NCBI GenBank assembly: GCA_963674965.2
Contig: CAXXFL010000005.1
Coordinates: forward strand, 765,150 to 829,149
Source of the DNA: a bacterium
Lineage (GTDB): Bacteria; RBG-13-61-14; DATKZS01
Length of the DNA stretch: 64,000 nt
Direction: 5' to 3'
Part shown: in pieces, positions 3,165 through 42,627 of the stretch
Layout of the letters: every line of letters begins with the position of its first letter
How positions within the stretch are numbered: position 1 is the first letter of the stretch
Notes under the pieces: generated by a model
What the model was told of the DNA's origin: nothing
Seen by the model: the letters and a program-made list of their open reading frames with translations, nothing else
Database searches by the model: none
Made by a program: the position numbers and the translations under genes

Positions 3165-4028
3165 TCATTCCTCTCTTCCATCCTCGTTATGACCGGTATT
3201 TTTATGGTTCGAGCGTCCAATCCACCGTCCGGGCGCTCGGTAGGCGTCCCTGGCGAAGAGGGCCGCTCCCAGGGCGCCGATGAGCTGGGGGTCCATGGGT
3301 AGGGGCTTGAACCTCGTTTCCAACTCCTTCTCCAGAAGCTCGACCATGGCCCGGTTCTTACTCACGCCGCCCGTCATGCAGACTTTTTCCCTTACCCCCA
3401 CCCTGCCGGTAAGGGCCTTGATCCTTTTGACCAGCGATTGATGCACTCCGGCGGCCACGTGCTTTTTCTTCTTGCCCGAGTAGATAAGCTGAGTCACCTC
3501 GACCTCGGCGAAAATGGTGCATTGCGAGCTGAGGACAAGGGGCCGTCGCGACTTCCGGGCCAGGTCGCCGAGCTCCGATACCTCGATGCCCAGGGTGCGG
3601 GCCATCATCTCGAGGAACCTGCCCGTGCCGGCGGCGCACTTGTCGTTCATGGCGAAGTCCTCGAGGGAGCCGTCGCTATCCACCCGGATGACCTTGCAGT
3701 CCTGTCCTCCCACGTCGATGATGGTGCGGACGTCAGGCGCCAGGCTATGGGCGCCTCTCCCGTGACATGATATCTCCGAGACGTTGCGGCGGGAAAAGGG
3801 AATCGAGTCCCTGCCGTAGCCCGTGGAGAAGCAAAGAGTGACGGCGTCCTCCATAAGGTTGGCCCGGGCCAGGGCCTTGTGGAAGACCTCGCGGGCCGAC
3901 TGCTCGGCCCGGGGACGGACCCGGATGATCTCTCCCGCCAGCGAGGCTCCGCTCTCGTCGATAAGCGCGCACTCGGCGGTAAGGGACCCCACGTCGATCC
4001 CGGCGAATATGGGCGATGACTGGCTCAA
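3165..4028 (-). CDS. BcrA/BadF/HgdC-type ASKHA ATPase (activase)
   Basis: Full-length 287 aa. Motifs GIDVGSLT, IIDVGGQDCKVI, NDKCAAGTGRFLEMMA, SSQCTIFAEVEV, MTGGVSKN. Confidence 0.85.
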   Translation of the reverse strand: MSQSSPIFAGIDVGSLTAECALIDESGASLAGEIIRVRPRAEQSAREVFHKALARANLMEDAVTLCFSTGYGRDSIPFSRRNVSEISCHGRGAHSLAPDVRTIIDVGGQDCKVIRVDSDGSLEDFAMNDKCAAGTGRFLEMMARTLGIEVSELGDLARKSRRPLVLSSQCTIFAEVEVTQLIYSGKKKKHVAAGVHQSLVKRIKALTGRVGVREKVCMTGGVSKNRAMVELLEKELETRFKPLPMDPQLIGALGAALFARDAYRAPGRWIGRSNHKNTGHNEDGREE

Positions 4029-4128
4029 GCGAGTACCCGCGCCGCGACATATTATCGCGAGCTATTGTAAAGTATAATCCGGGGGCCGGTGGAGCGGCAA
4101 ATTAGGAGGGAGTCGGTGGAGGTCCGGC

Positions 4129-4614
4129 TCAGTCGTCGCCTCTCGATATCGAGACGTCAAGCCCTCTTTTTTCGGCGAAGCTCACGAGCGCGTCGTGATG
4201 GGCGTGGTCGAATTTCTGCAGGTTCTTTACCAGGACGGAAAGCTCCGGGTTGGACTTTTCGAGGACGGTGCGGTAAAGGGACTCGGCGGCGCTGATCTCG
4301 AAAAACACCGCCGCCTGCAGTGCCCCTTCCAGACCATAACAGTCGCTCTCGATGAGGATTTTATCGCCGTGAACCAGGAGTTGTATGATCTCGTTCAGGT
4401 CGGCTTCCACGTCCTTGTATTGTTTTCTGTCCTTGACGATCACGCGGAGCTGGAACTGGACCATCTCGAGATGGGCCGCCTCTTCGCGGGCCATGCCCCG
4501 GAAAAAAGCGGCCGCTTCCCGGTCGTCCCCGGCGCACCCGGCGAAGGCCTCGTATATCTTCATCATTTTCATCTCGATTTGTTCGAGATAGTTTAAAATC
4601 GTAAGCACGTTCAA
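4129..4614 (-). CDS. Ferritin-like / rubrerythrin-like four-helix-bundle protein
   Basis: 161 aa, all-helical composition, E-x-x-H type motif 'REEAAHLE' and a His-rich 'FDHAHHDAL'. Confidence 0.5.
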   Translation of the reverse strand: MNVLTILNYLEQIEMKMMKIYEAFAGCAGDDREAAAFFRGMAREEAAHLEMVQFQLRVIVKDRKQYKDVEADLNEIIQLLVHGDKILIESDCYGLEGALQAAVFFEISAAESLYRTVLEKSNPELSVLVKNLQKFDHAHHDALVSFAEKRGLDVSISRGDD

Positions 4615-4881
4615 TATGGTATCTCCTCGCGAACAAGGATGAGGATAGAATGTATGGGCCGTCTTTACAATGGCGGGGCCTGATTTTCCAATCTCAAGGT
4701 ATCGCGTCGGGCATGTTTTTTTCGAAAATTCTTCTCGCCCGATTGGCCGCGAGAAACGATTTGGGCTAAAATAGCATCTAACTATCCGCTATGGTTTCAA
4801 ATTCCATGGCGTTAAATCCGGGACCTTCCGGCGCGTTCGTTATTATTCTGCATCGGTTCCGGTTTTAAACTGGGGGAGGTA

Positions 4882-6381
4882 ATGGACGGCGAAGACACGG
4901 CCGCCCGGGCCGAGGAGATATCCGCCGAGGAAGCGCGCCGACTGGCGAGCCTGAAAAAGGACTGGCTCGCCGGGCTGGAGATGCGGGAAAAAAACCGCGT
5001 TCTTTTCGAGTTGGAGATACTTCTCAAGGGCATGGATCGCTTTTTCAACGTTTCCAATTTGCCCCTTACCAACATGGAGAAGGTAATCACCTTCAATTTC
5101 GTGGACGAGCTCGAGATAGTCCTTAAATTCGTGGACCGGGTGGTCGAGCTGTCCGGGCTTTTACTCGAGGCCAGCCGGCGCGAGGACTACCAGTTCCGGC
5201 AATACGTCGAGACCAGGCTTCTTCGGGATTACGAGCGCTCGCGCTGGCTGCAGACGGCCCTTTCCCAGCGGAGCCCCGAGGACAGCCTGTTCGTCCTTTA
5301 CTCGACCTTTTTGAACCTTCGGGAGATCGTCCGGGGAATGATCGGCCTCAAGTCCGTCTCTTACACCCTTTTCTTTAACGTGGGCAACCTCATCACCAGG
5401 GAGATGATATCCAACAGGTTCTTCAGTCCCTCCCGCATGATCGAGTTCAAGCCCGAGTACGACAAGATGGCCAACCGCCGGATAGGCCACGTCATCCGCT
5501 CGATAGGAGACCCGGACCTGACCCGGCTGGCGTCGATCGTGGTGCTGGCCTTCAACCGGCTTCTTCAGTATCTCGAGTTCATTGACCCCCGCGCCGAGAC
5601 GGTCGAGACCCTTAAAAGCTCGCTGCTTTTTTTCGCCCTTATCCATTCGGAGAGCAAGTATCTTATCGAGTACCTTGACAACTCCCTTCCCTTGGAGATC
5701 AAATCTTCATCCCACCGGCTGGCCGGCAAGTTCGCCGAGACCTGCGACTCCCTCAGCTTCCAGCTTCAAATGGAACTGAGGAAAATCCACTCGGGCGAGC
5801 TTATGAACCTCAGCAAGGACAGGAAGTTTTCCTCGGTCAAGACGGCGGTCGAGAACAGCCACGGTATCCTTAAAAACTTTTTGCAGCAAAGCATCATCCA
5901 TCTTCTCAAGACTTTCGACGAGGCCCTCGAGGGGGAGTCCATATATCCGGAGTTCGTCTCGCGCAAGAAGCAGAGTTTAAAGCTTCGCGAGGACCTGGCC
6001 GTGTTATGCTCGCTTATGGAAAAGTACGAGGAAATAATCGAGACCACCGAGGCGGGCATGAACCTGGAAACTTACCAGCAATACCTGGAGTTGCAAAAGG
6101 GATGGATCGGACGCATGCGAGGCAAATCCATACCCCTTATGCGCCACCAGGACCTGGTCGAGTACGAGAAATATTTCCGCTACGTGGAGGACCTGAAACT
6201 GGACGACCTTCACCTGATGGACAAGCTGGACGGCTTCAAGATGGAGTCGAAGTTTTTCAAGATACTGGTCGAGACCACCCTGGGCCAGATCAACAACCGG
6301 ACCGACCTGCGCGAGGACCCTCTCGACGAGGACCGGGTCGAGGCGGTCCTGAAAAAATTCATCGGCGAGCGGACAACATAG
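4882..6381 (+). CDS. Hypothetical protein, 499 aa, helical, no recognisable domain
   Basis: Long ORF with RBS 'GGGGGAGG' just upstream of the ATG. No TM segments or motifs recognised. Confidence 0.6.
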   Translation: MDGEDTAARAEEISAEEARRLASLKKDWLAGLEMREKNRVLFELEILLKGMDRFFNVSNLPLTNMEKVITFNFVDELEIVLKFVDRVVELSGLLLEASRREDYQFRQYVETRLLRDYERSRWLQTALSQRSPEDSLFVLYSTFLNLREIVRGMIGLKSVSYTLFFNVGNLITREMISNRFFSPSRMIEFKPEYDKMANRRIGHVIRSIGDPDLTRLASIVVLAFNRLLQYLEFIDPRAETVETLKSSLLFFALIHSESKYLIEYLDNSLPLEIKSSSHRLAGKFAETCDSLSFQLQMELRKIHSGELMNLSKDRKFSSVKTAVENSHGILKNFLQQSIIHLLKTFDEALEGESIYPEFVSRKKQSLKLREDLAVLCSLMEKYEEIIETTEAGMNLETYQQYLELQKGWIGRMRGKSIPLMRHQDLVEYEKYFRYVEDLKLDDLHLMDKLDGFKMESKFFKILVETTLGQINNRTDLREDPLDEDRVEAVLKKFIGERTT

Positions 6382-6451
6382 CGTTGTAATCACCTGCCGG
6401 TCCTAGCCGGGCCGGCGGCGGGGGATCGTTCGACTTTTGATGGGAGGAGTA

Positions 6452-7741
6452 ATGCATAAACGTTCGGAGGAGCTTTTCGAGCGGGCGAGTTCGATATTGG
6501 TTGGAGGGGTCAACAGTCCCGTGCGCGCTTTCCGGGGGGTGGGCGGCTCCCCCGTGTTCATGTCCAGGGGAGGAGGCAGCCACGTCGAGGACGAGGACGG
6601 CAACTCCTACGTGGATTACGTTTTATCTTGGGGCCCGCTGATTCTCGGCCACGCCCATCCGGCGGTGGTCGACGCGGTTATCGGGGCCGTTCGGGCGGGC
6701 TCGAGCTTCGGGGCTCCCACCCTGCGCGAGATAGAGCTGGCGGAGATGGTAAGGAGCTATTACCCCTCCCTGGAAAAGCTTCGTTTCGTCAGTTCGGGCA
6801 CGGAGGCCTGCATGGGGGCGGTCCGGGCGGCGAGGGGCTTCACGGGTCGGGATAAGATCATCAAGTTCGAGGGATGTTATCACGGCCACGCCGATTACCT
6901 TCTGGCCAAGGCCGGTTCGGGGGCCACGACGCTTGGCCGGCCCGACTCGAGGGGAGTGCCCGCCTCCTTTACCGAGCACACGATTATCGTTCCCTATAAC
7001 GACGTCAAGGCGGTCGAGCGCGCCTTTGCCGAGCACGGGCCGGACCTGGCCGCGGTCATCGTCGAGCCGGTGGCGGGAAACATGGGGCTTATACTTCCCG
7101 AGCCGGGGTTTTTGGACTCACTGCGCAACCTTTGCACGCATTTCGACTCGGTGCTTATTTTCGACGAGGTATTAGTGGGTTTCAGGATAAAGGACGGGGC
7201 GCAAGGTCACTATAAAGTGAGGCCCGACCTTACCTGCCTGGGCAAGGTCATCGGTGGAGGTTTTCCCGTCGGCTGTTATGGGGGTAAAAAGGAAATCATG
7301 AGCCGCGTGGCGCCCGAGGGTCCGGTGTACCAGGCGGGAACTCTTTCCGGCAATCCCGTCGCCATGGCCGCCGGATTGGCCACCCTCGAGGAACTTGGCA
7401 AAGAAGGCGTATTTGGAGACCTCGAGAACCGCACTCGGTCACTGGTGGCGGCCCTGCGAAAAGAAGCGGAGAGTCTCGGGGAGTCGGTCTCGATAGTAAG
7501 CGTTGGGAGCCTCTTTTGCGTATTCTTCGCGGACAAGGCCCCGATAAATTACGGCGAGGCCACGGGAACGGACTCCCAGCGCTACGGGCGCTTTTTCCAC
7601 TCCATGCTGAAAAGGGGCATATACCTGGCCCCGTCGGCATTCGAGTCCGCCTTTATGAGCACGGCCCATTCATACAAGGACATAGATAAAACGGCGCGGG
7701 CCTTCAGGGAGTCCCTGCAAGAAAGCGCCGGCGGGAAATGA
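6452..7741 (+). CDS. hemL: Glutamate-1-semialdehyde 2,1-aminomutase
   Basis: SILVGGVNSPVRAF..., YVDYVLSWGPLILGHAHP, class-III aminotransferase layout. Start moved to the ATG at 6452, preceded by GGGAGGAG. Confidence 0.95.
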   Translation: MHKRSEELFERASSILVGGVNSPVRAFRGVGGSPVFMSRGGGSHVEDEDGNSYVDYVLSWGPLILGHAHPAVVDAVIGAVRAGSSFGAPTLREIELAEMVRSYYPSLEKLRFVSSGTEACMGAVRAARGFTGRDKIIKFEGCYHGHADYLLAKAGSGATTLGRPDSRGVPASFTEHTIIVPYNDVKAVERAFAEHGPDLAAVIVEPVAGNMGLILPEPGFLDSLRNLCTHFDSVLIFDEVLVGFRIKDGAQGHYKVRPDLTCLGKVIGGGFPVGCYGGKKEIMSRVAPEGPVYQAGTLSGNPVAMAAGLATLEELGKEGVFGDLENRTRSLVAALRKEAESLGESVSIVSVGSLFCVFFADKAPINYGEATGTDSQRYGRFFHSMLKRGIYLAPSAFESAFMSTAHSYKDIDKTARAFRESLQESAGGK

Positions 7742-9991: not shown

Positions 9992-11599
9992 CTATTTTTC
10001 TCCGCCATGGTCCTCGATCAGCTTTGCGGCCCGCTCATGTCCTTTTTTCTCGGCCAGCTTGAGAGGGGTTTTCCTGTCGCTGTTACGGATGTTTACTTCG
10101 CAGCCTCGGTCGAGCAGAAGCGCGACGATTTCCGTATGGCCCATATTTGCCGCCCAGTGCAAGGGGGTATTGTCGTGAGCCGTGCGGGCGTTAATGTCCG
10201 CTCCATTGTCCAGAAGCAGGGCCGCAATGTCTTTATACCCTCTGCGCGCCGCCCAGTGAAGAGGCGTGTATTTGCCGTCGTTCGAGGCGTTTACGTCGGC
10301 GCCCTTTTCGATCAGCATCTTTGCGATCCGGTAGCTTCCGCCTATGGCGGCCATGTGAAGGGGAGTGGTCCCCGTGTCGTTTTTAGACTCGATATCGGCT
10401 CCCTGCCCTATAAGGAATTGGGCGACTTCAACCTTGTCATGAATGGCGGCCAGGTGAAGGGGCGTATAGTTCGGCGCCACCACGATCTTGCTGTCCTCGT
10501 TGGGGAGGTCGGGAATGTGTTCCAGCTTGAATTTAACGTTGGTCAACCCCACGTAGCCGGACGTCAATTCCTTTACGGCCCGGATGTTTCCAGCCAGGAC
10601 CTCATTATAGAAAAGCTCGATTTCCCTTTCGCCGGCGGGCGAGCGTCCCATGCCCGCTGGAGGAAGTCCGGAATTGGCCGCCGAAGCCAAGGGAATTTCC
10701 GCGGGCTTCCCGGTCGGCTCGGTAAAAAAGACAAACTCTCCGTCGCCGGCGATATTGAACAGCTTGGGGGTCTGCCGGCCTCCCGAGTCGCGAGTGATCC
10801 TGGGCGCCATGTAAGAGTAAAGCTCGGAAGCGGGTATAATGCCGTCTCCATTCAGGTCGGCGTTTCCTCTTTTAAGTCCACTTAAAAGGGTATAGGTAAA
10901 CATGGAATGGCCGCCTCCAAACTGGGGTCCCTCGATGACCGTTTCATTGGCCTGGCCGGCGGTTATTATCTGCACGGCGCGCTGAGTTGTCAGCTTGGTA
11001 AGGTACAAAGTGGGGTCGGCGTAAGGGACCGCTCTTGTTTCCACCCCCGCGATCCCCGAGTAACAGGCGTCGACTATATAAAAGATGTGCTTCGATTTCA
11101 TCATCTTAGCCGTCTCCTGAATGGTGGACATGGAAAGACAGGTGCCGTAAAGATTGTCCGCCTTTCCTTCCACTGGTATGAGATAGCCCATTTTTTCTCC
11201 GCTGGGAAGAGGCATATCCTGACCATGTCCGGCAAAGAAAATAAGCACCCTGTCGTTGGGACCTACCTTTTGAGGCAAAGTATTTCCCAAAGCCGTCTTG
11301 ATATTAGCCATAGTCGCCTTCTCGTCGTATAGAGTCTCGATGTTTTCAGCGGGAAATCCGCCATCGGCCGCAAGGTACTGCTTCATGGCCTTGGCGTCGG
11401 CCACGGCGTATTTTAACTCGGGAACGTTTTCATACTTGTCGATCGCGATCAGCAGGGCCCATGACTGGGCATAGACGGACTTGGGCGGCGCGCCCGGCCC
11501 ATCTTTGGGGCCATCTAATATATCGCGTTCCTTTGATACCGAGATCGCGGCAAGGAAAGATAATAATAATATCGCCGGGACTATTCTTTTCATGATCAT
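9992..11599 (-). CDS. Exported caspase-family (peptidase C14) protein fused to about 5 C-terminal ankyrin repeats
   Basis: Signal peptide MIMKRIVPAILLLSFLAAISV. Caspase His/Cys dyad contexts 'IFFAGHGQD' and 'YIVDACYSG'. Repeated 'TPLH.AA..G....LL..GADxN' units. Confidence 0.85.
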   Translation of the reverse strand: MIMKRIVPAILLLSFLAAISVSKERDILDGPKDGPGAPPKSVYAQSWALLIAIDKYENVPELKYAVADAKAMKQYLAADGGFPAENIETLYDEKATMANIKTALGNTLPQKVGPNDRVLIFFAGHGQDMPLPSGEKMGYLIPVEGKADNLYGTCLSMSTIQETAKMMKSKHIFYIVDACYSGIAGVETRAVPYADPTLYLTKLTTQRAVQIITAGQANETVIEGPQFGGGHSMFTYTLLSGLKRGNADLNGDGIIPASELYSYMAPRITRDSGGRQTPKLFNIAGDGEFVFFTEPTGKPAEIPLASAANSGLPPAGMGRSPAGEREIELFYNEVLAGNIRAVKELTSGYVGLTNVKFKLEHIPDLPNEDSKIVVAPNYTPLHLAAIHDKVEVAQFLIGQGADIESKNDTGTTPLHMAAIGGSYRIAKMLIEKGADVNASNDGKYTPLHWAARRGYKDIAALLLDNGADINARTAHDNTPLHWAANMGHTEIVALLLDRGCEVNIRNSDRKTPLKLAEKKGHERAAKLIEDHGGEK

Positions 11600-11642
11600 A
11601 CCCCCGTTTGCGTTCGCCAGAAAAAAGTTATCATAAAAACCA

Positions 11643-13616
11643 TTAATCGCATTTAATTTCGAAAACCTCGACTGGGTCCTGAAATCCTTTCAACTCCTTA
11701 AAACCCGCGGCCTCGCACTCGATTAAGTCCCTGATCATGGCCCAGGTCCGCTTGGAGATCATCACGTTGCCGGGCGTACAATTGGACTCCAGGCGCTGGG
11801 CCATGTTGACGCTCGAGCCCAGGGCCGTGTACTCGCGGTGTAAATTGGACCCGAAAAAGCCCACCCCGGCAAAGCCGGTTTTGATTCCTATGCGGATGAC
11901 TATTTCCGGCCATCCCGACTCTATCCATTTCCTCGAGAGTTCCTTGGTCACCCGCTGCATCTCGATAGCGGCTTTTGCCGCCTCAAGGGCATGGTCGTCA
12001 GATGGGACGGGCGCTCCCCAAAAGGCCATGATGCCGTCGCCGATAAACTTGTCTAAAGTACCGCTATATTTAAATATTATTTCAGTCATGGCCTCGAAAT
12101 ACTCGGATAATAGCGCGTTGATTACCTCCGGGTCCTCCCGGTCCGAGATGGCAGTAAAGCCCCGGATGTCGGAAAATAATACGGATATCTCGCGCCTTTC
12201 GCCTTTAACCTGGAGGCTTTTCGGATCAGCAAGAAGCCGCTCGAGCACGGAAGGCGATATAACGTTTCTAAAATGCTCCTTTAAAAATTTCGCCTCCCTG
12301 TCAATCCTGGATGAATTGTAAGTAATCATCGCCCCAAGACCGATAATGAAAGATACCAGGGGAAGAGTGACGGGGATGAAAGAACCGATCCAAGCTGGAG
12401 CCGCTATTGAAAAGCCAAGATACAAAGCAACCACGAACGCGCCCGCCGGCGCGGAGAGCCAAGGGCTTTTACCAAGTCCGATAACGATGGATAAAGCGGT
12501 CAAGCCTGCCAGGCAGAAAATGAATCCCATCACCCCGGCGTCGGATTTCATTTTCCGTCCCATGATCGTATTAGCCAAATTGGCGTGTATCCCGACGCCG
12601 GGAAAAGCCGCCTGGAATGGCTGGCTCCTCATGTCGGTTCCGCCCGTATAGGCCGCCCCCACAAAGCACAGGGAGCCTTTTATACGCCGGGCCAACTCGG
12701 CGGCCACGTCATCCGGCGGGTCGGGATCGATCAGCCATTGGGCGGAGAAGAGCCCCGTGCGCTCCTCAGTATTCCAGGCGTCCCAAGGTCCGGTCCAGTT
12801 TATTATCGACCGCCCTTGCCCGTCCACGGGTATTATCAGATCATCGGCCGGGCCATTCTTTTTGGCTGGAATAATCAGGTCTGATCCCCGCATCACCATC
12901 CCGTCAAAGTCCCACTCGCCCAGTCGCTCGACGGCGGCAAGCCCTAATACTGGAAGCAGCCCGTCCCGCGTCGAAACAAAAAGAGGAACGCGGCGCAGTA
13001 CTCCGTCCGAGTCGGGCGACGCGGGGTTCGTGGCCATGGCCGCGGCGGACTTTAAGTACCACTCAGGCGGGAAAAGCGCTCTGGAAAAGTCTGGAAAATC
13101 GGGCGTTTCCTTGTCGTGACCGACCCGATAGAGGGAAGGCATTAGCAGTTCCCGCTCCTCAGGAGAAATTTCCGGCTCGGCTCCGGCCCCTGAATAAGAA
13201 AGCTCGAGGGGGATAGTCCCGATCACCTTGTCGGCGGCCAACATGGCGGACGCGAGGTTCTCGTCGTTCACCGGGTCTTTACTGGGCGAAGCGATGATAA
13301 AGTCGTAGATTATTGCTTTAGCGCCGTAAGCGTCAATGCGCTCGATTATGGCGGCCTGCCTGGACCGGGACCAGGGCCACGGGCCAAAGCGCTCGAGGCT
13401 GGGGTCGTCAACCGCGACGATGACTATCCTCGGGTCGGTTTTGACCGGTCCAAGCAACCTCGTTCGGAGGTCGGCGGTTTTGAGTTCGATCTCGCCGATG
13501 GTCCTTCCCAAAACCAGGTATAAGGCGAGCATGATAACCGGACCGGCCAACCCCCAGAGGGCGGTCCGGATATTCCGGGCGCTCGAGGATGAAAATCTCT
13601 TTTTACCTGTGCTCAA
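11643..13616 (-). CDS. CHASE2 sensor-domain adenylate/guanylate cyclase (class III)
   Basis: N-terminal TM, then 'IVIVAVDDPSLERFGPWPWSRS' (CHASE2), a cluster of TM helices, and a cyclase core 'ISVLFSDIRGFTAIS ... KFIGDGIMAFWGAP'. Confidence 0.9.
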   Translation of the reverse strand: MSTGKKRFSSSSARNIRTALWGLAGPVIMLALYLVLGRTIGEIELKTADLRTRLLGPVKTDPRIVIVAVDDPSLERFGPWPWSRSRQAAIIERIDAYGAKAIIYDFIIASPSKDPVNDENLASAMLAADKVIGTIPLELSYSGAGAEPEISPEERELLMPSLYRVGHDKETPDFPDFSRALFPPEWYLKSAAAMATNPASPDSDGVLRRVPLFVSTRDGLLPVLGLAAVERLGEWDFDGMVMRGSDLIIPAKKNGPADDLIIPVDGQGRSIINWTGPWDAWNTEERTGLFSAQWLIDPDPPDDVAAELARRIKGSLCFVGAAYTGGTDMRSQPFQAAFPGVGIHANLANTIMGRKMKSDAGVMGFIFCLAGLTALSIVIGLGKSPWLSAPAGAFVVALYLGFSIAAPAWIGSFIPVTLPLVSFIIGLGAMITYNSSRIDREAKFLKEHFRNVISPSVLERLLADPKSLQVKGERREISVLFSDIRGFTAISDREDPEVINALLSEYFEAMTEIIFKYSGTLDKFIGDGIMAFWGAPVPSDDHALEAAKAAIEMQRVTKELSRKWIESGWPEIVIRIGIKTGFAGVGFFGSNLHREYTALGSSVNMAQRLESNCTPGNVMISKRTWAMIRDLIECEAAGFKELKGFQDPVEVFEIKCD

Positions 13617-14805
13617 ACTCGACGTGCCTCGCGACGATGTTGTCCCCTTTGATGATAGTCGGATTGATCCGCCCCTTTCCAGATGAACCGGAGAGGGAAA
13701 GGGGCGGTCCCTGGCTTATCCCCCCAATGCTCCTTTCCGTGTAGCCCGCCGTGCCCGTGACGTCAATAGGAGGCTTGGCCCGGCCGGGAGCGCGGGTATC
13801 GAATATCTTGTTCAGTTCGGTCGAAATGGAATTCGACAGCGCGGATTTGTCGGCGTCCTCTTTGGCCAGGCCGCCGATCAAGCGGGAAAGGTCTTTGATC
13901 GGCTCCTTTGCGGCCAGGAAATAAAGGGATTCCCTGCCAAGGTGGTCGTCGAGAGTATACCATCCCGTTCCGGGCGGTAAGGCGTATTCCATGCCCGCCT
14001 GGATATAGTTGGAAGCCGCCTCTCCCTGGCCGGGGAAAAGGACCCCGGCCGAACCGGTCGAGCCGATCTGGATGACGTAGACGTAGCAGGGGCGGTTGGC
14101 TGAGAACCGGATTTTCATGCGGTCGCCCGAGTGGAGGACCGCCCCCGGCGTGAGCTCGATTATGCGGGAGATATTTCCATCGGCGGCGTCGGTTACTTCC
14201 GCGGCGAAGCTGACTCTTATGACGAGCTCGCCGCCGCCCGGGATTGGCAAGGACGCCTCGTTAACCGGCTCGGGCCGGGGAGAAGAGACCATCAGGCTCT
14301 GCACTTCGGATTTGTACACGAGCGCCGAGGATTGTCCGGCTTTTTGGCCGCTTGATACGTCCATGATCGACGCCTCGATCCTTACCGACTCGCCCGCCTC
14401 GCGGATCGTTCCCGTTACGATCCAGTCGGCGCCCAGGGCTTGCCCGATCTTTTCTATCGCGTCCGGTTCCGATATCTCGCCGGAAATAAGATTTTTTTCG
14501 ATGATGACTTGGTTGATCTTCCGCCTCTCGATCATGCGCCGTCCGCCTTCTCGAGTAAGCCCGACTGACAGTGACTCGGCCAGATAATAGCAAAGAGGCA
14601 TGGTCCGGCCATCAGGACCGATAAAGTCCAGCACCGCCACCAGGTCGCCTTTCTTTATCGCTTTGCCAAGGTCCCTCTCCAATACGGATAGCGCCGGACT
14701 AAGCCCCATGGCCGCCTCTCGCCCATTCTTTTCAGAGCGCGCCGAAAGGCAAATCATGCCGATAAAGACGGCCGCTAAAAGAGCTATGTTAATGGAATGC
14801 TTCAT
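13603..14805 (-). CDS. Exported protein with an N-terminal FlgO/CsgG-like domain and a DUF4384-like domain
   Basis: Signal peptide. 'VAVLDFIG...ADWIVTGTI' N-domain. Central 'GDRMKIRFSANRPCYVYVIQIGSTGSAGVLFP' resembles DUF4384. Its stop overlaps the cyclase start by 14 bp. Confidence 0.65.
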   Translation of the reverse strand: MKHSINIALLAAVFIGMICLSARSEKNGREAAMGLSPALSVLERDLGKAIKKGDLVAVLDFIGPDGRTMPLCYYLAESLSVGLTREGGRRMIERRKINQVIIEKNLISGEISEPDAIEKIGQALGADWIVTGTIREAGESVRIEASIMDVSSGQKAGQSSALVYKSEVQSLMVSSPRPEPVNEASLPIPGGGELVIRVSFAAEVTDAADGNISRIIELTPGAVLHSGDRMKIRFSANRPCYVYVIQIGSTGSAGVLFPGQGEAASNYIQAGMEYALPPGTGWYTLDDHLGRESLYFLAAKEPIKDLSRLIGGLAKEDADKSALSNSISTELNKIFDTRAPGRAKPPIDVTGTAGYTERSIGGISQGPPLSLSGSSGKGRINPTIIKGDNIVARHVEFEHR

Positions 14806-15088
14806 TATTTATATATAAATAGCTCCTTGTCCTTCGCGGGACAATTATGTCCCTGCAAAAGTAAACCGTTAAGGCTGGACGCCTTCAAGACAAGTCAATG
14901 TGCCTTCCCGAACCTGGAGAAAAATTACAACATATTGAATGATAAATCAATGGAATGGAAAAGAGATGAATAAAGTCATGAAATAGAAGGGTGGAATCTT
15001 CAGCGGATTTTTTTTTAATCTTAATCCGGCAAAGTTATCGTGATTTCCCCATGGAAAACCGGGCCCATTAGTACATTTCCCTGGCAGG

Positions 15089-16411
15089 TCACTCCATGTC
15101 CGGCTTATTATCGAGAAGATCGAAGAAATTATATTGGTGGTACTCCTGGTTAAAAGCGCCGGCCTTTGGCCTTCCAAGCTTCATGGGATTGCCCTTTGAA
15201 AAGGACACCAGGAAATCTCCCGACTTGGGCGCCATGCAGAACTGGTGGGACGTCACGCCCAGGGTCGGCCCTTTTTCCCAATTGATGGAGTTGTAATGCT
15301 CGCGAAGGATATCCAGCATCGAGACCATGTTCAGGTCGCCCAACTCTCCGACCAGCCTGGCGCGAAGGTCCATGTAGCGCTGGGCTGTCCTTTTACTATG
15401 GGGCTTGCCGTCGTCGATTTTCATTTTCCGATGGGCTATAAGCTCCGAGCTGAGCGGGTGGTTGGTCCTGGTGATAAGGTCTTCCGCGGGAGTATACTCG
15501 TAATGACGTCCCTTGAAATCGTAAGAGTTGGACTCGGCGGGTCCGTCCCATCCGCCCACGTAGAAGGTCCGGGCGTCCATCTCGATGGCCACCGCGTCGG
15601 GAATCCCGGCGTCGGCCACCAGGAAGTTATAGCCGCCGGCCAGCGGCTTTCTCGTCATCCAGTCGATGGCCTCCTCGAGGGTCCGGGCCTTGGCCAGGGT
15701 CTGCTTCATGCGGAAGGGCATGGGAAGGCCCGAGGGCGTCTCGTATTTCGAGGGAAGCGACATGTTGCCCACCGCGACGCCCTCGGCGTTCATGCCGTCC
15801 GACGCCCCGATGTAGCCGGGCCATGAGATCATCATATAGGGGATTTCACCCTTCGGCTTATATATGACGATCATGCCCTTGTCCTGGATGGCGGTCTTCG
15901 TCTTCGGGTCAATGGTGGCCGCCACGTCATTGCTTCGCATGAAGTAAAGCTCGCCGTCTTTCGTGGCCGTCCCCCAGGCGGCGGAGCCCGAGCAGCTTGT
16001 AAGGAAAGTGGCCGAGTGCAGGGCCTCGACGTACTTGAGAGATATGCCGCTCTCGTCGGCAAGGCCTCTCATCTCGTCCTTGAAGCCCGCGGGAATGTAG
16101 GGGTCCTGCTTTTGGGAGACGTACCTGTGGATGGCCGAAATGGCCAGCTTGGGTGGAATAAGCGGGTATTGAATCCGGATCGAGTGGATCGCGGCGCGAA
16201 CGGTTATTGCCGCGTCGTCCTTCAGCAGGGCCGCGTGCTGCCGGCCCATGTCGTAGTAGGACCCCTCGAGATGGAGGATAATATCGCCTTGCTCGGTCTT
16301 CTCCACCCACCCCACGCCGGTCTCGGTTTTATAAACCCCAAGCGTCTTAGCGTGGGAGGTCAAAGAGGCAAAGAAGTAAAGAAACAGGACAATGACAATT
16401 GATTTCTTCAT
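15089..16411 (-). CDS. Exported peptidase C45 / acyl-CoA:6-APA acyltransferase-like Ntn hydrolase
   Basis: Signal peptide MKKSIVIVLFLYFFASLTSHA. 'GSYYDMGRQHAALL' and a putative nucleophile context 'FLTSCSGSAAWG'. Confidence 0.65.
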   Translation of the reverse strand: MKKSIVIVLFLYFFASLTSHAKTLGVYKTETGVGWVEKTEQGDIILHLEGSYYDMGRQHAALLKDDAAITVRAAIHSIRIQYPLIPPKLAISAIHRYVSQKQDPYIPAGFKDEMRGLADESGISLKYVEALHSATFLTSCSGSAAWGTATKDGELYFMRSNDVAATIDPKTKTAIQDKGMIVIYKPKGEIPYMMISWPGYIGASDGMNAEGVAVGNMSLPSKYETPSGLPMPFRMKQTLAKARTLEEAIDWMTRKPLAGGYNFLVADAGIPDAVAIEMDARTFYVGGWDGPAESNSYDFKGRHYEYTPAEDLITRTNHPLSSELIAHRKMKIDDGKPHSKRTAQRYMDLRARLVGELGDLNMVSMLDILREHYNSINWEKGPTLGVTSHQFCMAPKSGDFLVSFSKGNPMKLGRPKAGAFNQEYHQYNFFDLLDNKPDME

Positions 16412-16664
16412 AATATGGCCTTTCAAGGTTCAGCCCGGTTCGGCATCCACGTTTTTCGTGCCCATACGAGCGTGTAAAAAATATTCCCAGCACAATATTA
16501 GCCCTAAAAATCACGGATAGCCAGAAGGAAATCCGCGTGATCAATCAAATTATTTATTTACGACTCATAAAAGAAATTGTAACGACATGCTCCCAAACTC
16601 ATCTTTAAGTGAGATGAGTTTATCAGTTTATTGGTTCGCCTCGAGATCGAAAAGGAGCATTCCC

Positions 16665-16886
16665 ATGAAATGTCCCCGTTGCGGGTGCGAGAGATTCTAT
16701 ATCAAGGACCCATATGACGAGTACGAGATTTTCGAGTTCGACGCGGGGGAAGACAAGGTCGTATTTGACCGGGATTATAACGAGTCCGACCCTCCCGAGT
16801 TGGAGGCGGGCACCCAGACCTTCTGCGCCATGTGCTCATGGCATGATAAGTTCGGCGTACTTTTAAAAACGGCATGTAATAATTGA
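16665..16886 (+). CDS. Small zinc-ribbon protein (73 aa)
   Basis: AAGGAG RBS before the ATG at 16665. 'CPRCGC' ... 'CAMCSW' paired CxxC motifs. Confidence 0.45.
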   Translation: MKCPRCGCERFYIKDPYDEYEIFEFDAGEDKVVFDRDYNESDPPELEAGTQTFCAMCSWHDKFGVLLKTACNN

Positions 16887-41418: not shown

Positions 41419-42627
41419 TTACTCGGTCCCACCATGATTTTTGATGATTTGCGCAATTTCTTTATGGCCTTTTTCAAGCGCGGCCATATAAGGGGTTTTC
41501 CCATTACTGCACTTTGCATTTACGTCAGCCCCATTTTCGATTAGTAGTTCGACCATGCCTCTTTTGCCTTCCAAGGCCGCAATGTACAAAGGAGTCTCGC
41601 CTGATATAGTCCCCTTCGCATTGATTGTCGCGCCGTTTTGGATCAGGACCTTGGCGACTCTGACGTGATCAAATGCGCTGGCTATATGGAGAGGCGTCCA
41701 ATTATTTTCCTCCACAATGTCAACATTTACTCTTTTGGACAATAATAGCTCAGCTACTTCCACCGCATCCTTTCTTGCGGCCAAGTGTAAGGGACTTAAG
41801 TTTGCATTTTCTTCTGCGAGGTTAGGGTCCGCGCCCTTGGCAATCAGGTCCAAGGCCAAATCTGTCTGTCCCATTATAATTGACTTGTGCAGGGCCGTTT
41901 GTCCATCATTCGATTTGGCATCCAGGTCTATGCCTTTAGAGATAAGGATACGCGCAACATCCACTTTCTCCTGGGCGACCGCGAGTAATAGGGGAGTATA
42001 TCCGGCGTCGGTTCGAGCCCCCAAGTTTGCGCCTTTTTCGACCAGCAATTCTACGATCTTTTTTCGTCCCTGGAAGCTTGCTATGTGAAGGGCGGTCATG
42101 TCGTGTTCGGATTTAACATCAAGCTTGGCTCCTCTTTCCACTAGCAATCTCGCAACATCGTAATTGCCCATATTGGCGGCATGGTGCAGAGCCGTCATGC
42201 TTTGATTGTCCTGTACGTCGATCTCAGCTCCAGCGTTAAGTAACTGTTCGCAAGCCTCTCTCTGTCCTTTGTGTGCCGCCATCAACAGAGGCGTAAATCC
42301 AACCTTATCCGTGGCTTCAATATCCGCTCCATTAGCCAAGAGCAAGGTTATCATCTCATTATTTCCCAAGTGAGCGGCAAAGTGAAGAGGCGTATGATTT
42401 TTATATCTCTCTCTGGAGTTGACCTTTTTAGGCTTCTTTTCGAGTGTCTTCCTGACCTCGGATATATCACCATTTGCCACTGCCTGATGAATCTTTCCGC
42501 CCCATACAGTCTCAGGACATAAAAGAAAGAAAACCACCATAACTAGAAGTGGTTTTATAACCCCTTTTTGGCAACCGGAATTATGCGGCATCCCGCCTTC
42601 AATATAATTTTTACCTGATCGATCCAT
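41419..42627 (-). CDS. Exported ankyrin-repeat protein (about 10-11 repeats), AT-rich gene
   Basis: Hydrophobic N-terminus 'IKPLLVMVVFFLLCPETVWG', then tandem 'TPLH.AA..G....LL..GA' units. An alternative start at 42591 is possible. Confidence 0.85.
   Translation of the reverse strand: MDRSGKNYIEGGMPHNSGCQKGVIKPLLVMVVFFLLCPETVWGGKIHQAVANGDISEVRKTLEKKPKKVNSRERYKNHTPLHFAAHLGNNEMITLLLANGADIEATDKVGFTPLLMAAHKGQREACEQLLNAGAEIDVQDNQSMTALHHAANMGNYDVARLLVERGAKLDVKSEHDMTALHIASFQGRKKIVELLVEKGANLGARTDAGYTPLLLAVAQEKVDVARILISKGIDLDAKSNDGQTALHKSIIMGQTDLALDLIAKGADPNLAEENANLSPLHLAARKDAVEVAELLLSKRVNVDIVEENNWTPLHIASAFDHVRVAKVLIQNGATINAKGTISGETPLYIAALEGKRGMVELLIENGADVNAKCSNGKTPYMAALEKGHKEIAQIIKNHGGTE

Follow-up and report, generated by a model that had tools for sequence, protein, structure and literature searches.

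The 64,000-nucleotide stretch of DNA analysed here (the window) carries three co-directional open reading frames on its minus strand, at the positions given in the original prediction. Read 5′ to 3′, they are g1 (13603–14805; 400 residues, ATG start), which encodes a predicted exported accessory protein on the evidence of the ORF list, Pfam, an AF2 model, Foldseek and orthologues; g2 (11643–13616; 657 residues, TTG start), which encodes a CHASE2 receptor adenylate cyclase (Pfam, AF2); and g3 (9992–11599; 535 residues), which encodes a predicted exported caspase-like protease that carries ankyrin repeats at its C-terminus (Pfam, relatives). The tight linkage that had been claimed is borne out: g1 and g2 overlap by 14 bp if translation of g2 begins at the TTG at 13616, the sole start that keeps a positive N-terminus before the first transmembrane segment (TM1), and g2 and g3 are separated by 43 bp. 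This gap becomes 49 bp if g3 starts at its second ATG (11593), which is probably the case judging from a 533-residue database gene call and the Shine-Dalgarno spacing. The interval between g2 and g3 contains no terminator-like site. The AT-rich region of 283 bp 5′ of g1 (14806–15088, minus strand) contains two sigma-70-like sites (14872–14844 and 14833–14804; consensus matches only) and is probably the promoter of the module, the genes of which would be co-transcribed.

The exported C45 gene that had been noted upstream is present (15089–16426; NCBIfam C45_proenzyme, E=5e-45) and its product begins with a hydrophobic signal-like segment by hydropathy, but the gene is set apart from g1 by this gap with its promoter-like sites and is not kept beside the g1–g2 pair in other lineages; it is not part of the module. 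Downstream of g3 lies a RarA/MgsA gene, and the housekeeping genes around the locus also include a HemL-type aminotransferase and TrkAH. The GC content is even across the window, which showed no signs of mobile elements. No gene for a cAMP receptor or phosphodiesterase was found near the locus, and a phmmer search of the window with CRP as the query revealed no cNMP-binding protein.

The g2 product matches CHASE2 (PF05226) with 143 bits against a cutoff of 26.3 (E=1.3e-41) and the Pfam Guanylate_cyc model at E=2e-25, in agreement with its first assignment as a CHASE2 sensor joined to a class III cyclase. Its hydrophobic segments (residues 19–40, 361–379, 392–410 and 413–431) and the long helices of the AF2 model (24–55, 361–380, 385–409 and 417–449; pLDDT 89.8) predict a topology of one transmembrane segment, 320 periplasmic residues, three further transmembrane segments and the cyclase, which places the CHASE2 domain (residues 41–360; 12537–13496, minus strand) between TM1 (19–40) and TM2–4 (361–431). 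The predicted cytoplasmic class III cyclase domain (residues 474–652; 11661–12197, minus strand), delimited by conserved columns and PDB matches, contains the metal-binding residues Asp483 and Asp527, the substrate residues Lys523 and Thr597, and the transition-state residues Asn604 and Arg608; across 28 homologues all are invariant except Thr597, which is near-invariant. The top PDB matches of this domain are the adenylate cyclases CyaB of P. aeruginosa (3r5g; E=2e-40, TM 0.93, rmsd 1.1) and CyaC of Spirulina. The PDB matches comprised cyclase-domain structures only and none of CHASE2 which, to our knowledge, is a widespread bacterial sensor domain without a defined ligand or solved structure. 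With its CHASE2 score, predicted topology and complete catalytic set, including the adenine-specifying Lys, g2 falls among the CHASE2-domain receptor class III adenylate cyclases, and its product would be cAMP.

In the g1 protein (AF2 model pLDDT 85.7) a signal-like N-terminus is followed by an LpoB/TolB-N-like domain, a DUF4384 β-sandwich, two paired helices, a flexible conserved loop and a β tail. The N-terminal hydrophobic segment was recognized by hydropathy only, as was that of g3, and both agree with the extracytoplasmic placement originally proposed for these two proteins. The FlgO/CsgG-like character ascribed to the N-domain (residues 35–171; 14293–14703, minus strand) also stands, with the refinement that its α/β fold is that of the LpoB C-domain, TolB-N, CsgG and FlgO: Foldseek retrieved the LpoB C-domain 4q6l (E=2e-8, TMt 0.70, sequence identity ∼12%), together with the TolB N-domain, GNA1162, PelC and CsgG, and the family profile searched against the PDB returned CsgG (5e-7), FlgO (9e-6) and LpoB (8e-4). 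In Pfam the FlgO model scores 21.9 bits, just below its cutoff of 22.6, and the CsgG match is weak; both models exceed their cutoffs in the orthologue from lineage L003. LpoB is an outer-membrane lipoprotein that activates the inner-membrane enzyme PBP1B. The g1 N-terminus (GMIC-LSA) lacks a canonical lipobox ([LVI][ASTVI][GAS]C), and a lipobox-type Cys is absent from the N-termini of three orthologues, with those of L001 and L003 having no Cys at that position. The protein therefore does not belong with LpoB, CsgG and PelC among the outer-membrane lipoproteins.

DUF4384, a domain of unknown function that is widespread in extracytoplasmic proteins, is recurrently fused to proteases and receptor kinases. 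In g1 it spans residues 194–302 (13900–14226, minus strand; PF14326, E=1.4e-14, 54 bits against a cutoff of 27), scores 42–66 bits in the orthologues and is modelled with high pLDDT as a seven-stranded β-sandwich for which Foldseek found no significant fold match in the PDB. Long relatives of g1 have DUF4384 fused to CHAT (five), Peptidase_C25 (two), trypsin (two) or FGE-sulfatase domains. The conserved loop (residues 338–367, R338-APGRAK-PIDVTGTAG-YTER358-SIGG..GP; 13705–13794, minus strand) was defined by orthologue alignment and pLDDT. Its invariant columns are R338, P346, I347, D348, T350–A353, E357, R358, I360–G362, G366 and P367; residues 339–356 have pLDDT <50, so that it is partly predicted to be disordered, and it is bordered by Arg/Lys residues including R338 and R358. 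The motif is retained in L091, L003, L001, L095, L096 and L093, and may serve for docking or cleavage. Most of the wider g1 family (478 clusters at E<=1e-10) has no link to CHASE2, and the gene after the more distant member L093 encodes a TPR protein instead; the family therefore has other partners.

The caspase (C14) domain of g3 (residues 46–290; 10730–11464, minus strand) was identified by Pfam (PF00656, 61 bits against a cutoff of 21.4, E=1.3e-16) and alignment. Its catalytic dyad is intact, as first reported, and comprises His125 (11225–11227, FFAGHGQ) and Cys179 (11063–11065, VDACYSG), both of which are invariant, along with Asp177, in 17 related sequences. The D177-A-C-Y-S-G motif is of the metacaspase/orthocaspase type (D-x-C-x-S-G pocket motif), and we take it to resemble the D-S-C-H-S-G of the metacaspase TbMCA2 pocket. 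Orthocaspases cut after basic residues (PMC6426788), and g3 is probably specific for Arg/Lys. No transmembrane segment follows the caspase domain. The ankyrin repeats occupy residues about 375–530 (10010–10477, minus strand; Ank_2, E=1e-47). Among 608 relatives the C-terminal domains are interchangeable, with the ankyrin part swapped for FGE-sulfatase, SEL1, PEGA, CsgG-like, OmpA or other domains, and this region of g3 appears to be a variable recognition module. The closest relatives, 62–66% identical, are caspase-FGE-sulfatase and caspase-Ank proteins, and the genes of the four examined stand alone in contexts unrelated to this module. The caspase of the L001 genome nearest to g3 (P0124, 65–66% identical) is encoded on another contig among unrelated genes. 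A g1-type N-domain is found at the C-terminus of 17 of 119 related exported caspases (g1 N-domain HMM, E=1e-11 to 1e-22), and DUF4384 itself in none of the 119 listed. These caspases, together with the DUF4384–protease fusions, tie the domains of g1 to proteases. We also considered whether g3 is an EACC1-associated caspase, and rejected this identity on its NCBIfam caspase_w_EACC1 score (NF047832; 81 bits, below the cutoff of 140).

The genomic distribution of the three genes separates a conserved pair from an optional neighbour. The g1–g2 pair occurs in the same order and strand in all six of the deeply divergent lineages compared (the window, L091/L092, L003, L001, L095 and L096), all of them uncultured metagenome assemblies and two represented by truncated contigs, across 39–59% GC and with a g1–g2 spacing of −14 to +80 bp. 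The g2 proteins are 35–48% identical among these lineages (76% between L095 and L096), against ∼31% for the next-best CHASE2 cyclases, and the g1-linked receptors thus form a subfamily of their own. A caspase gene lies directly 3′ of g2 in two of the five lineages in which this position is visible. The expectation that the trio would recur therefore held in part: L091/L092 (GCA_964580655.1) has the same three-gene order, whereas L001, L003 and L096 have the pair with no caspase downstream. The L091/L092 caspase gene overlaps the cyclase gene by 8 bp, and its product (47% identical to g3, E=4e-92) retains the dyad and has an FGE-sulfatase-like domain in place of the ankyrin repeats. The two linked caspases belong to separate sub-branches, that of g3 with P0124 and that of L091 with P0134, which fits two separate recruitments. 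Caspases were found at none of 80 more distant CHASE2-cyclase loci, and the contrast with two of five g1-linked loci gives a Fisher p of 0.003, a value that ignores shared ancestry; of the six members of the caspase subclade examined, only two are linked to a CHASE2 cyclase operon. The g1–g2 pair rather than the trio is the conserved unit, and the caspase gene is a facultative third component.

Several known systems bear on how this arrangement is to be read. A Campylobacterota cluster combines FecR-OMP, CHASE2-AC, PDE and TPR genes (PMC9239204), and the S. meliloti CHASE2 cyclases CyaK, CyaD1 and CyaD2 depend on NsrA (PMC13001267). Our survey of distant CHASE2 cyclases agrees with both, since FecR-domain proteins were their commonest same-strand upstream neighbours (11 of 49) and class II cAMP-phosphodiesterase-like genes their commonest downstream neighbours (8–9 of 35). 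As in those clusters, an extracytoplasmic accessory gene here directly precedes a CHASE2 receptor adenylate cyclase. However, g1 combines an LpoB-like domain with DUF4384 and has no FecR match in Pfam (hhalign of DUF4384 against FecR-type partners gave a probability of 10%), the pair in the window is followed by the caspase-Ank and RarA/MgsA genes and preceded by the C45 gene, with no adjacent phosphodiesterase or TPR gene, and an exported caspase has been added in some lineages. Our best reading is that the module belongs to an already known type of cluster, a periplasmic partner with a CHASE2 adenylate cyclase, in which the new elements are DUF4384 instead of FecR and an optional periplasmic protease input.

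Caspase-fold proteases have themselves been associated with CHASE2 sensors in a Trichodesmium metacaspase (PMC3501461) and in EACC2-caspase-CHASE2 proteins (PMC8195603). Those are single polypeptides with a cytoplasmic caspase as the CHASE2 output, whereas here a separate, exported caspase would lie on CHASE2's side of the membrane and the output is a cyclase; with separate genes, a signal-like N-terminus and no transmembrane segment after the caspase domain, g3 is not part of an EACC2-type fusion. Exported orthocaspase/metacaspase-like architectures with FGE-sulfatase, PEGA, OmpA or CsgG-like C-termini have been catalogued (PMC3501461), and g3 is a clear member of this family by its dyad, D-x-C-x-S-G motif and signal-like N-terminus, but the family has not been described as linked to CHASE2 cyclase operons. 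The likeness to LpoB–PBP1B lies in the fold of the g1 N-domain and in the proposed logic, by which a periplasmic protein would act on an inner-membrane enzyme through the periplasmic domain of the latter; it stops at the missing lipobox, the low identity, the extra DUF4384 and tail, and a proposed target that is a signalling receptor rather than a peptidoglycan synthase. Csx29–Csx30 of type III-E CRISPR (Craspase) likewise pairs a caspase-fold protease with a substrate that in some cases has a DUF4384 C-terminal domain (bioRxiv 10.1101/2022.08.17.504292). This is an analogy only, as Craspase comprises a cytoplasmic RNA-activated CHAT protease and a sigma-factor-controlling substrate, and g3 has no CRISPR context.

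On these observations we think it fairly probable that the locus encodes a two-gene envelope-sensing cAMP core (g1–g2) with an optional exported-caspase input. The g2 protein would be an inner-membrane receptor adenylate cyclase, with CHASE2 facing the periplasm and the class III catalytic domain facing the cytoplasm, and g1 a secreted periplasmic protein that co-evolves with this CHASE2 subfamily. By analogy with the FecR-domain and NsrA-type partners, and with LpoB spanning the periplasm, g1 is most likely an accessory or co-sensor of the receptor that binds CHASE2 or brings it an envelope or extracellular cue, thereby setting cAMP synthesis; we infer physical contact between the two. In some lineages g3 would add a third input, its variable C-terminal domain (ankyrin here) picking the target. 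Where present, it probably acts on g1 or the CHASE2 ectodomain, which would make part of the response proteolytic and irreversible, and the best candidate site for such a cleavage would be the conserved, exposed, Arg/Lys-flanked loop of g1. Proteolytic gating in caspase-bearing lineages is plausible and the domain fusions back it. The specific form, in which the caspase cuts loop 338–367 or a g1-presented CHASE2 ectodomain so that an envelope or extracellular cue produces a step change in cAMP synthesis, we consider rather unlikely. The loop is conserved to an equal degree in lineages without a linked caspase, so cutting by that caspase cannot be its only role.

The main idea of the original prediction went further, casting the three genes as one obligate machine in which caspase cleavage is the signal that switches the cyclase either on or off. 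In its favour are the close packing of the genes in the window, the recurrence of the three-gene order, with overlaps between genes, in L091/L092, and the fusions that join caspase-fold proteases to both g1 domains. Yet three of the five lineages have the pair without an adjacent caspase and the most g3-like caspase of the L001 genome is unlinked, which indicates that this receptor subfamily works without a dedicated neighbouring caspase, and we judge an obligate switch quite unlikely. The same absences, with the stand-alone nearest relatives, mean that the adjacency itself may be incidental, g3 being an independent envelope protease from a large exported-caspase family that merely lies 3′ of a g1–g2 operon. 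The many C-terminal domains among the 608 relatives and the caspase-free distant CHASE2-cyclase loci are as this would have it, but a caspase of a different sub-branch occupies the identical position and orientation, with an 8-bp overlap, in a second lineage; this recurrence, the Fisher test (subject to shared ancestry), the caspase–g1 N-domain and DUF4384–protease fusions, and the lack of a terminator-like site between g2 and g3 make an incidental neighbour somewhat unlikely.

Two further readings assign the genes to other processes. If g1 served mainly to regulate envelope or peptidoglycan enzymes in the manner of LpoB, its position beside the cyclase would reflect co-regulation rather than direct signalling through CHASE2. 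The fold of its N-domain and the mostly CHASE2-free wider family suit such a role, but g1 lacks a lipobox, and its strict adjacency, often with overlap, to one CHASE2 subfamily across 39–59% GC argues for a physical partnership, so that we hold this very unlikely. The earlier suggestion of a conflict or death module, in which cyclic-nucleotide signalling by the cyclase would lead to execution by the caspase in phage defence or programmed death, is extremely improbable and found no support in the analysis. The cyclase domain does match Pycsar PycC models, the caspase and ankyrin regions match PADLOC models, and caspase–CHASE2 fusions are known from predicted conflict systems (PMC8195603). However, such matches are common to class III cyclases, caspases and ankyrin repeats in general, the caspase here is exported rather than cytoplasmic and falls short of the EACC1 cutoff, and the flanks are housekeeping genes in a window of even GC without mobile-element signs. 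Pycsar identity in particular was rejected, as the homology to PycC is generic and no cyclic-nucleotide-binding effector was found beside the cyclase.

The g1–g2 core with its optional caspase is known only from a handful of uncultured lineages, and all functional steps of the favoured reading are inferred. The compact, conserved pair gives CHASE2 and DUF4384 each a concrete candidate partner, with cAMP as a simple readout for probing the role of either, and through the optional exported caspase a first natural substrate may be found for the large, unstudied family of periplasmic caspase-like proteases. Should the caspase gate cAMP synthesis by cutting g1 or CHASE2, the system would provide the first example of a CHASE2 receptor gated by a protease, give DUF4384 its first assigned function and reveal the first physiological substrate of a periplasmic bacterial caspase.

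The three genes lie head to tail on the minus strand in the order g1, g2, g3. g1 (13603-14805; 400 aa) encodes the exported DUF4384 protein, g2 (11643-13616; 657 aa) the CHASE2 receptor cyclase and g3 (9992-11599; 535 aa) the exported caspase-like protease. A 14-bp overlap joins g1 to g2, which starts at a TTG codon, the only candidate that retains a Lys/Arg-rich segment before the first membrane helix. The g3 start region (11593-11599) holds two in-frame ATGs, two codons apart, which place g3 43 or 49 bp from g2. The second ATG (11593) is better spaced from a GGGGG ribosome-binding site and agrees with a 533-aa database call, making the 49-bp gap the more likely. The layout in the original prediction, with its overlap and short gap, is borne out on either count. 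Consensus matching found no terminator-like site between the three genes, and two promoter-like sites occupy the 283-bp AT-rich gap 5' of g1. Immediately next to the start codon of g1 is a perfect 16-bp AT palindrome, TATTTATATATAAATA (14806-14821), which could act as an operator or in translation control, or could have arisen by chance as low-complexity sequence.

All of the predicted domain assignments hold under HMM search, including DUF4384 in g1 (E=1.4e-14) and CHASE2 (E=1.3e-41) and class III cyclase (E=2e-25) in g2. FlgO and CsgG matches are marginal for g1 in the window and above cutoffs in one orthologue. The AlphaFold model of g1 (pLDDT 85.7) comprises an alpha/beta N-domain, a DUF4384 beta-sandwich, two helices, an 18-residue low-confidence loop and a beta tail. 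Structurally, the N-domain resembles the C-domain of LpoB (E=2e-8, TM 0.70), with further matches to the TolB N-domain, GNA1162, PelC and CsgG; comparison of the beta-sandwich with PDB structures gave no significant match. g1 has no lipobox and is therefore not an outer-membrane lipoprotein of the LpoB or CsgG kind. The predicted topology of g2 is canonical, with one transmembrane helix, a 320-residue periplasmic domain, three transmembrane helices and the cyclase. Conserved cyclase residues are the metal-binding Asp pair, Asn and Arg of the transition state, and Lys523/Thr597 of the adenine type. CyaB and CyaC, both adenylate cyclases, are the nearest solved structures; structure comparison against the PDB matched the cyclase domain only, and a sequence search of the PDB found no CHASE2 structure.

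A word-based search recovered a single g1 relative; an exhaustive HMMER search, which supplied the useful relatives, returned 5425, eight of them close. Scanning metagenomes with the g1 alignment added two partial N-domain matches and nothing more. Every close g1 relative on a readable contig is immediately followed by a g2-subfamily CHASE2 cyclase, and all of these related loci come from uncultured assemblies. What follows the cyclase varies: the caspase-ankyrin gene in the window, a caspase-like gene with an FGE-sulfatase domain at L091/L092 (GCA_964580655.1), a small ORF and then a GH3 glycosidase at L001, a 134-aa unknown and then LpxB at L003, an unrelated membrane protein at L096, and the contig end at L095. 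The g1-linked receptors share 35-48% identity with one another (76% between L095 and L096) and about 31% with the next-best CHASE2 cyclases, and the GC content of the pair-bearing contigs ranges from 39 to 59%; this divergence indicates that the pair is old and stays together. The DUF4384 protein and the CHASE2 adenylate cyclase make up the conserved unit. More distant members of the g1 family have neighbours other than a CHASE2 cyclase. We rejected a conserved small gene 3' of the pair, as nothing in the window corresponds to the 134-aa ORF of L003 or to a 59-aa ORF of L001.

As third member, the exported caspase is facultative, though it recurs: of the predicted trio the pair is conserved at every readable close locus, while the caspase is found again at L091/L092 and is missing from L001, L003 and L096. 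The L091/L092 gene (589 aa) overlaps its cyclase gene by 8 bp; the N-terminal 300 residues of its product share 47% identity with the caspase domain of g3 (E=4e-92) and keep the His and Cys, and its C-terminus is FGE-sulfatase-like. Transposase genes (DDE_Tnp_1, DUF772; L091 5585-6587) follow this second trio, which thus borders a mobile element. A linked caspase occurs in 2/5 g1-CHASE2 loci against 0/80 others (Fisher p=0.003, for lineages that are not independent). The caspase most like g3 in the L001 genome, P0124 (65-66%), sits on a different contig amid unrelated genes, and three further close relatives, one a caspase-ankyrin protein, are likewise stand-alone genes. In a neighbour-joining tree g3 joins the unlinked P0124, and the L091 caspase joins another relative, P0134, in a separate sub-branch; a single ancestral linkage with several later losses would explain this tree no better than two recruitments.

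Three kinds of fusion link caspase-fold proteases to g1 domains, from which the caspase may belong with the module. Among the matches listed, 17 of 119 g3-caspase-domain relatives end in a domain matching the g1 N-domain HMM (E=1e-11 to 1e-22), and other C-terminal domains among them are FGE-sulfatase, PEGA, OmpA, SEL1 and ankyrin. In a set of 41 long g1 relatives, DUF4384 occurs in fusions with CHAT (five), Peptidase_C25 (two) and trypsin (two) domains, and also with PEGA, CarboxypepD_reg and FGE-sulfatase. The last of these replaces ankyrin on the L091 caspase and is joined to a g1-type module in P0250 (606 aa), where it precedes a FlgO/CsgG-like domain and DUF4384. DUF4384 is known to be frequently fused to proteases, and some versions of Csx30, which the caspase-like Csx29 takes as its substrate, have it as their C-terminal domain (bioRxiv 10.1101/2022.08.17.504292); the outer domain of a receptor-kinase family can be either DUF4384 or FGE-sulfatase (bioRxiv 10.1101/2025.01.12.632604).

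g3 itself consists of a signal-like N-terminus, the C14 domain and four to five ankyrin repeats. H125 and C179 are unchanged across relatives, and the D177-A-C-Y-S-G motif is of metacaspase type. Residues 247-260 (A-D-L-N-G-D-G-I-I-P-A-S-E-L; 10820-10861, minus strand) are conserved across the exported caspase family, with D248 and E259 invariant; the motif resembles a calcium loop of EF-hand or dockerin type and hints at calcium-dependent activity, as in metacaspases. Another ankyrin-repeat protein (41419-42627, minus strand; 402 aa, about nine repeats) with a hydrophobic signal-like N-terminus is encoded 30 kb from g3, which suggests that ankyrin proteins are exported to the envelope in this organism.

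With the components, their predicted membrane sides, their conservation and their associations established, we propose that g1 would bind the CHASE2 ectodomain or present a cue to it, and so tune cAMP synthesis. Where an exported caspase is present, its variable C-terminal domain would locate the target, and the protease, probably Arg/Lys-specific by analogy with orthocaspases (PMC6426788), would cleave g1 or the CHASE2 ectodomain. Residues 338-367 of g1 (R-APGRAK-PIDVTGTAG-YTER-SIGG..GP) form a loop that is a candidate site; it does not vary among orthologues, although part of it is predicted to be disordered. Docking is the more likely primary role of this loop, because it is just as conserved in lineages without a linked caspase. 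Neither a cAMP receptor nor a phosphodiesterase nor a CRP-type site was found near the module, and a phmmer search of the window for CRP-like proteins was negative; cAMP autoregulation was rejected, as no CRP-like site lies upstream of g1 and matches in the window are fewer than expected by chance. The observation behind the original prediction is confirmed and its interpretation partly supported: the alternative of a conflict or death module gains no support, PADLOC matches being generic only, which also argues against Pycsar or another defence system.

The exported C45-family autoproteolytic acyltransferase/hydrolase (15089-16426, minus strand; NCBIfam E=5e-45) does lie upstream on the same strand, 283 bp from g1, but no related g1-CHASE2 locus carries a homologue, and it is therefore not part of the module. 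Between it and trkH is a 99-aa ORF (16587-16886, plus strand) with two CxxC pairs (CPRCGC ... CAMC), zinc-ribbon-like and without a Pfam match. The window contains no rRNA; its Rnf, BadF/BcrA-type ATPase and ferredoxin genes suggest an anaerobic host, and LpxB adjoining the L003 pair suggests a diderm.

To place the pair among CHASE2 cyclases, we compared 80 loci (L004-L083) of species-representative genomes whose cyclases share 25-33% identity with g2. Searching all ORFs within 7 kb with phmmer and custom HMMs identified no caspase or DUF4384 protein, ruling out either as a general CHASE2-cyclase neighbour. A g1-N-domain-like protein occurred at one locus only, L075 of a Bacteroidota MAG (3466-6802), where a 270-aa protein of CsgG/LpoB type (CsgG E=2e-15) and then a TPR protein of 832 aa precede the distant cyclase; it adds a second, independent example of an LpoB fold close to a CHASE2 cyclase, this time without DUF4384. 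FecR-domain proteins are the same-strand neighbours most often seen upstream (11/49), and FHA-domain (5/49) and HlyD-type (3/49) proteins also recur immediately 5' of the cyclase; downstream, a class II cAMP-phosphodiesterase-like metallo-beta-lactamase is the most frequent (8-9/35). A FecR, CHASE2 cyclase and phosphodiesterase cluster has been described in Campylobacterota (PMC9239204), and NsrA with the S. meliloti CHASE2 cyclases follows a comparable partner logic (PMC13001267). Could g1 be a diverged FecR-type partner? Comparison by hhalign of its N-domain, DUF4384 and tail profiles with 12 such partners gave probabilities of 10% or less, and we consider the two analogous, not homologous. 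The literature searched held no paper on DUF4384 and CHASE2 as a gene pair. Given the FecR-type pattern and that g1 does not belong to it, the arrangement in the window is a new variant of a known one, likewise joining a partner to a CHASE2 cyclase, in which a distinct CHASE2 subfamily has a different periplasmic partner.
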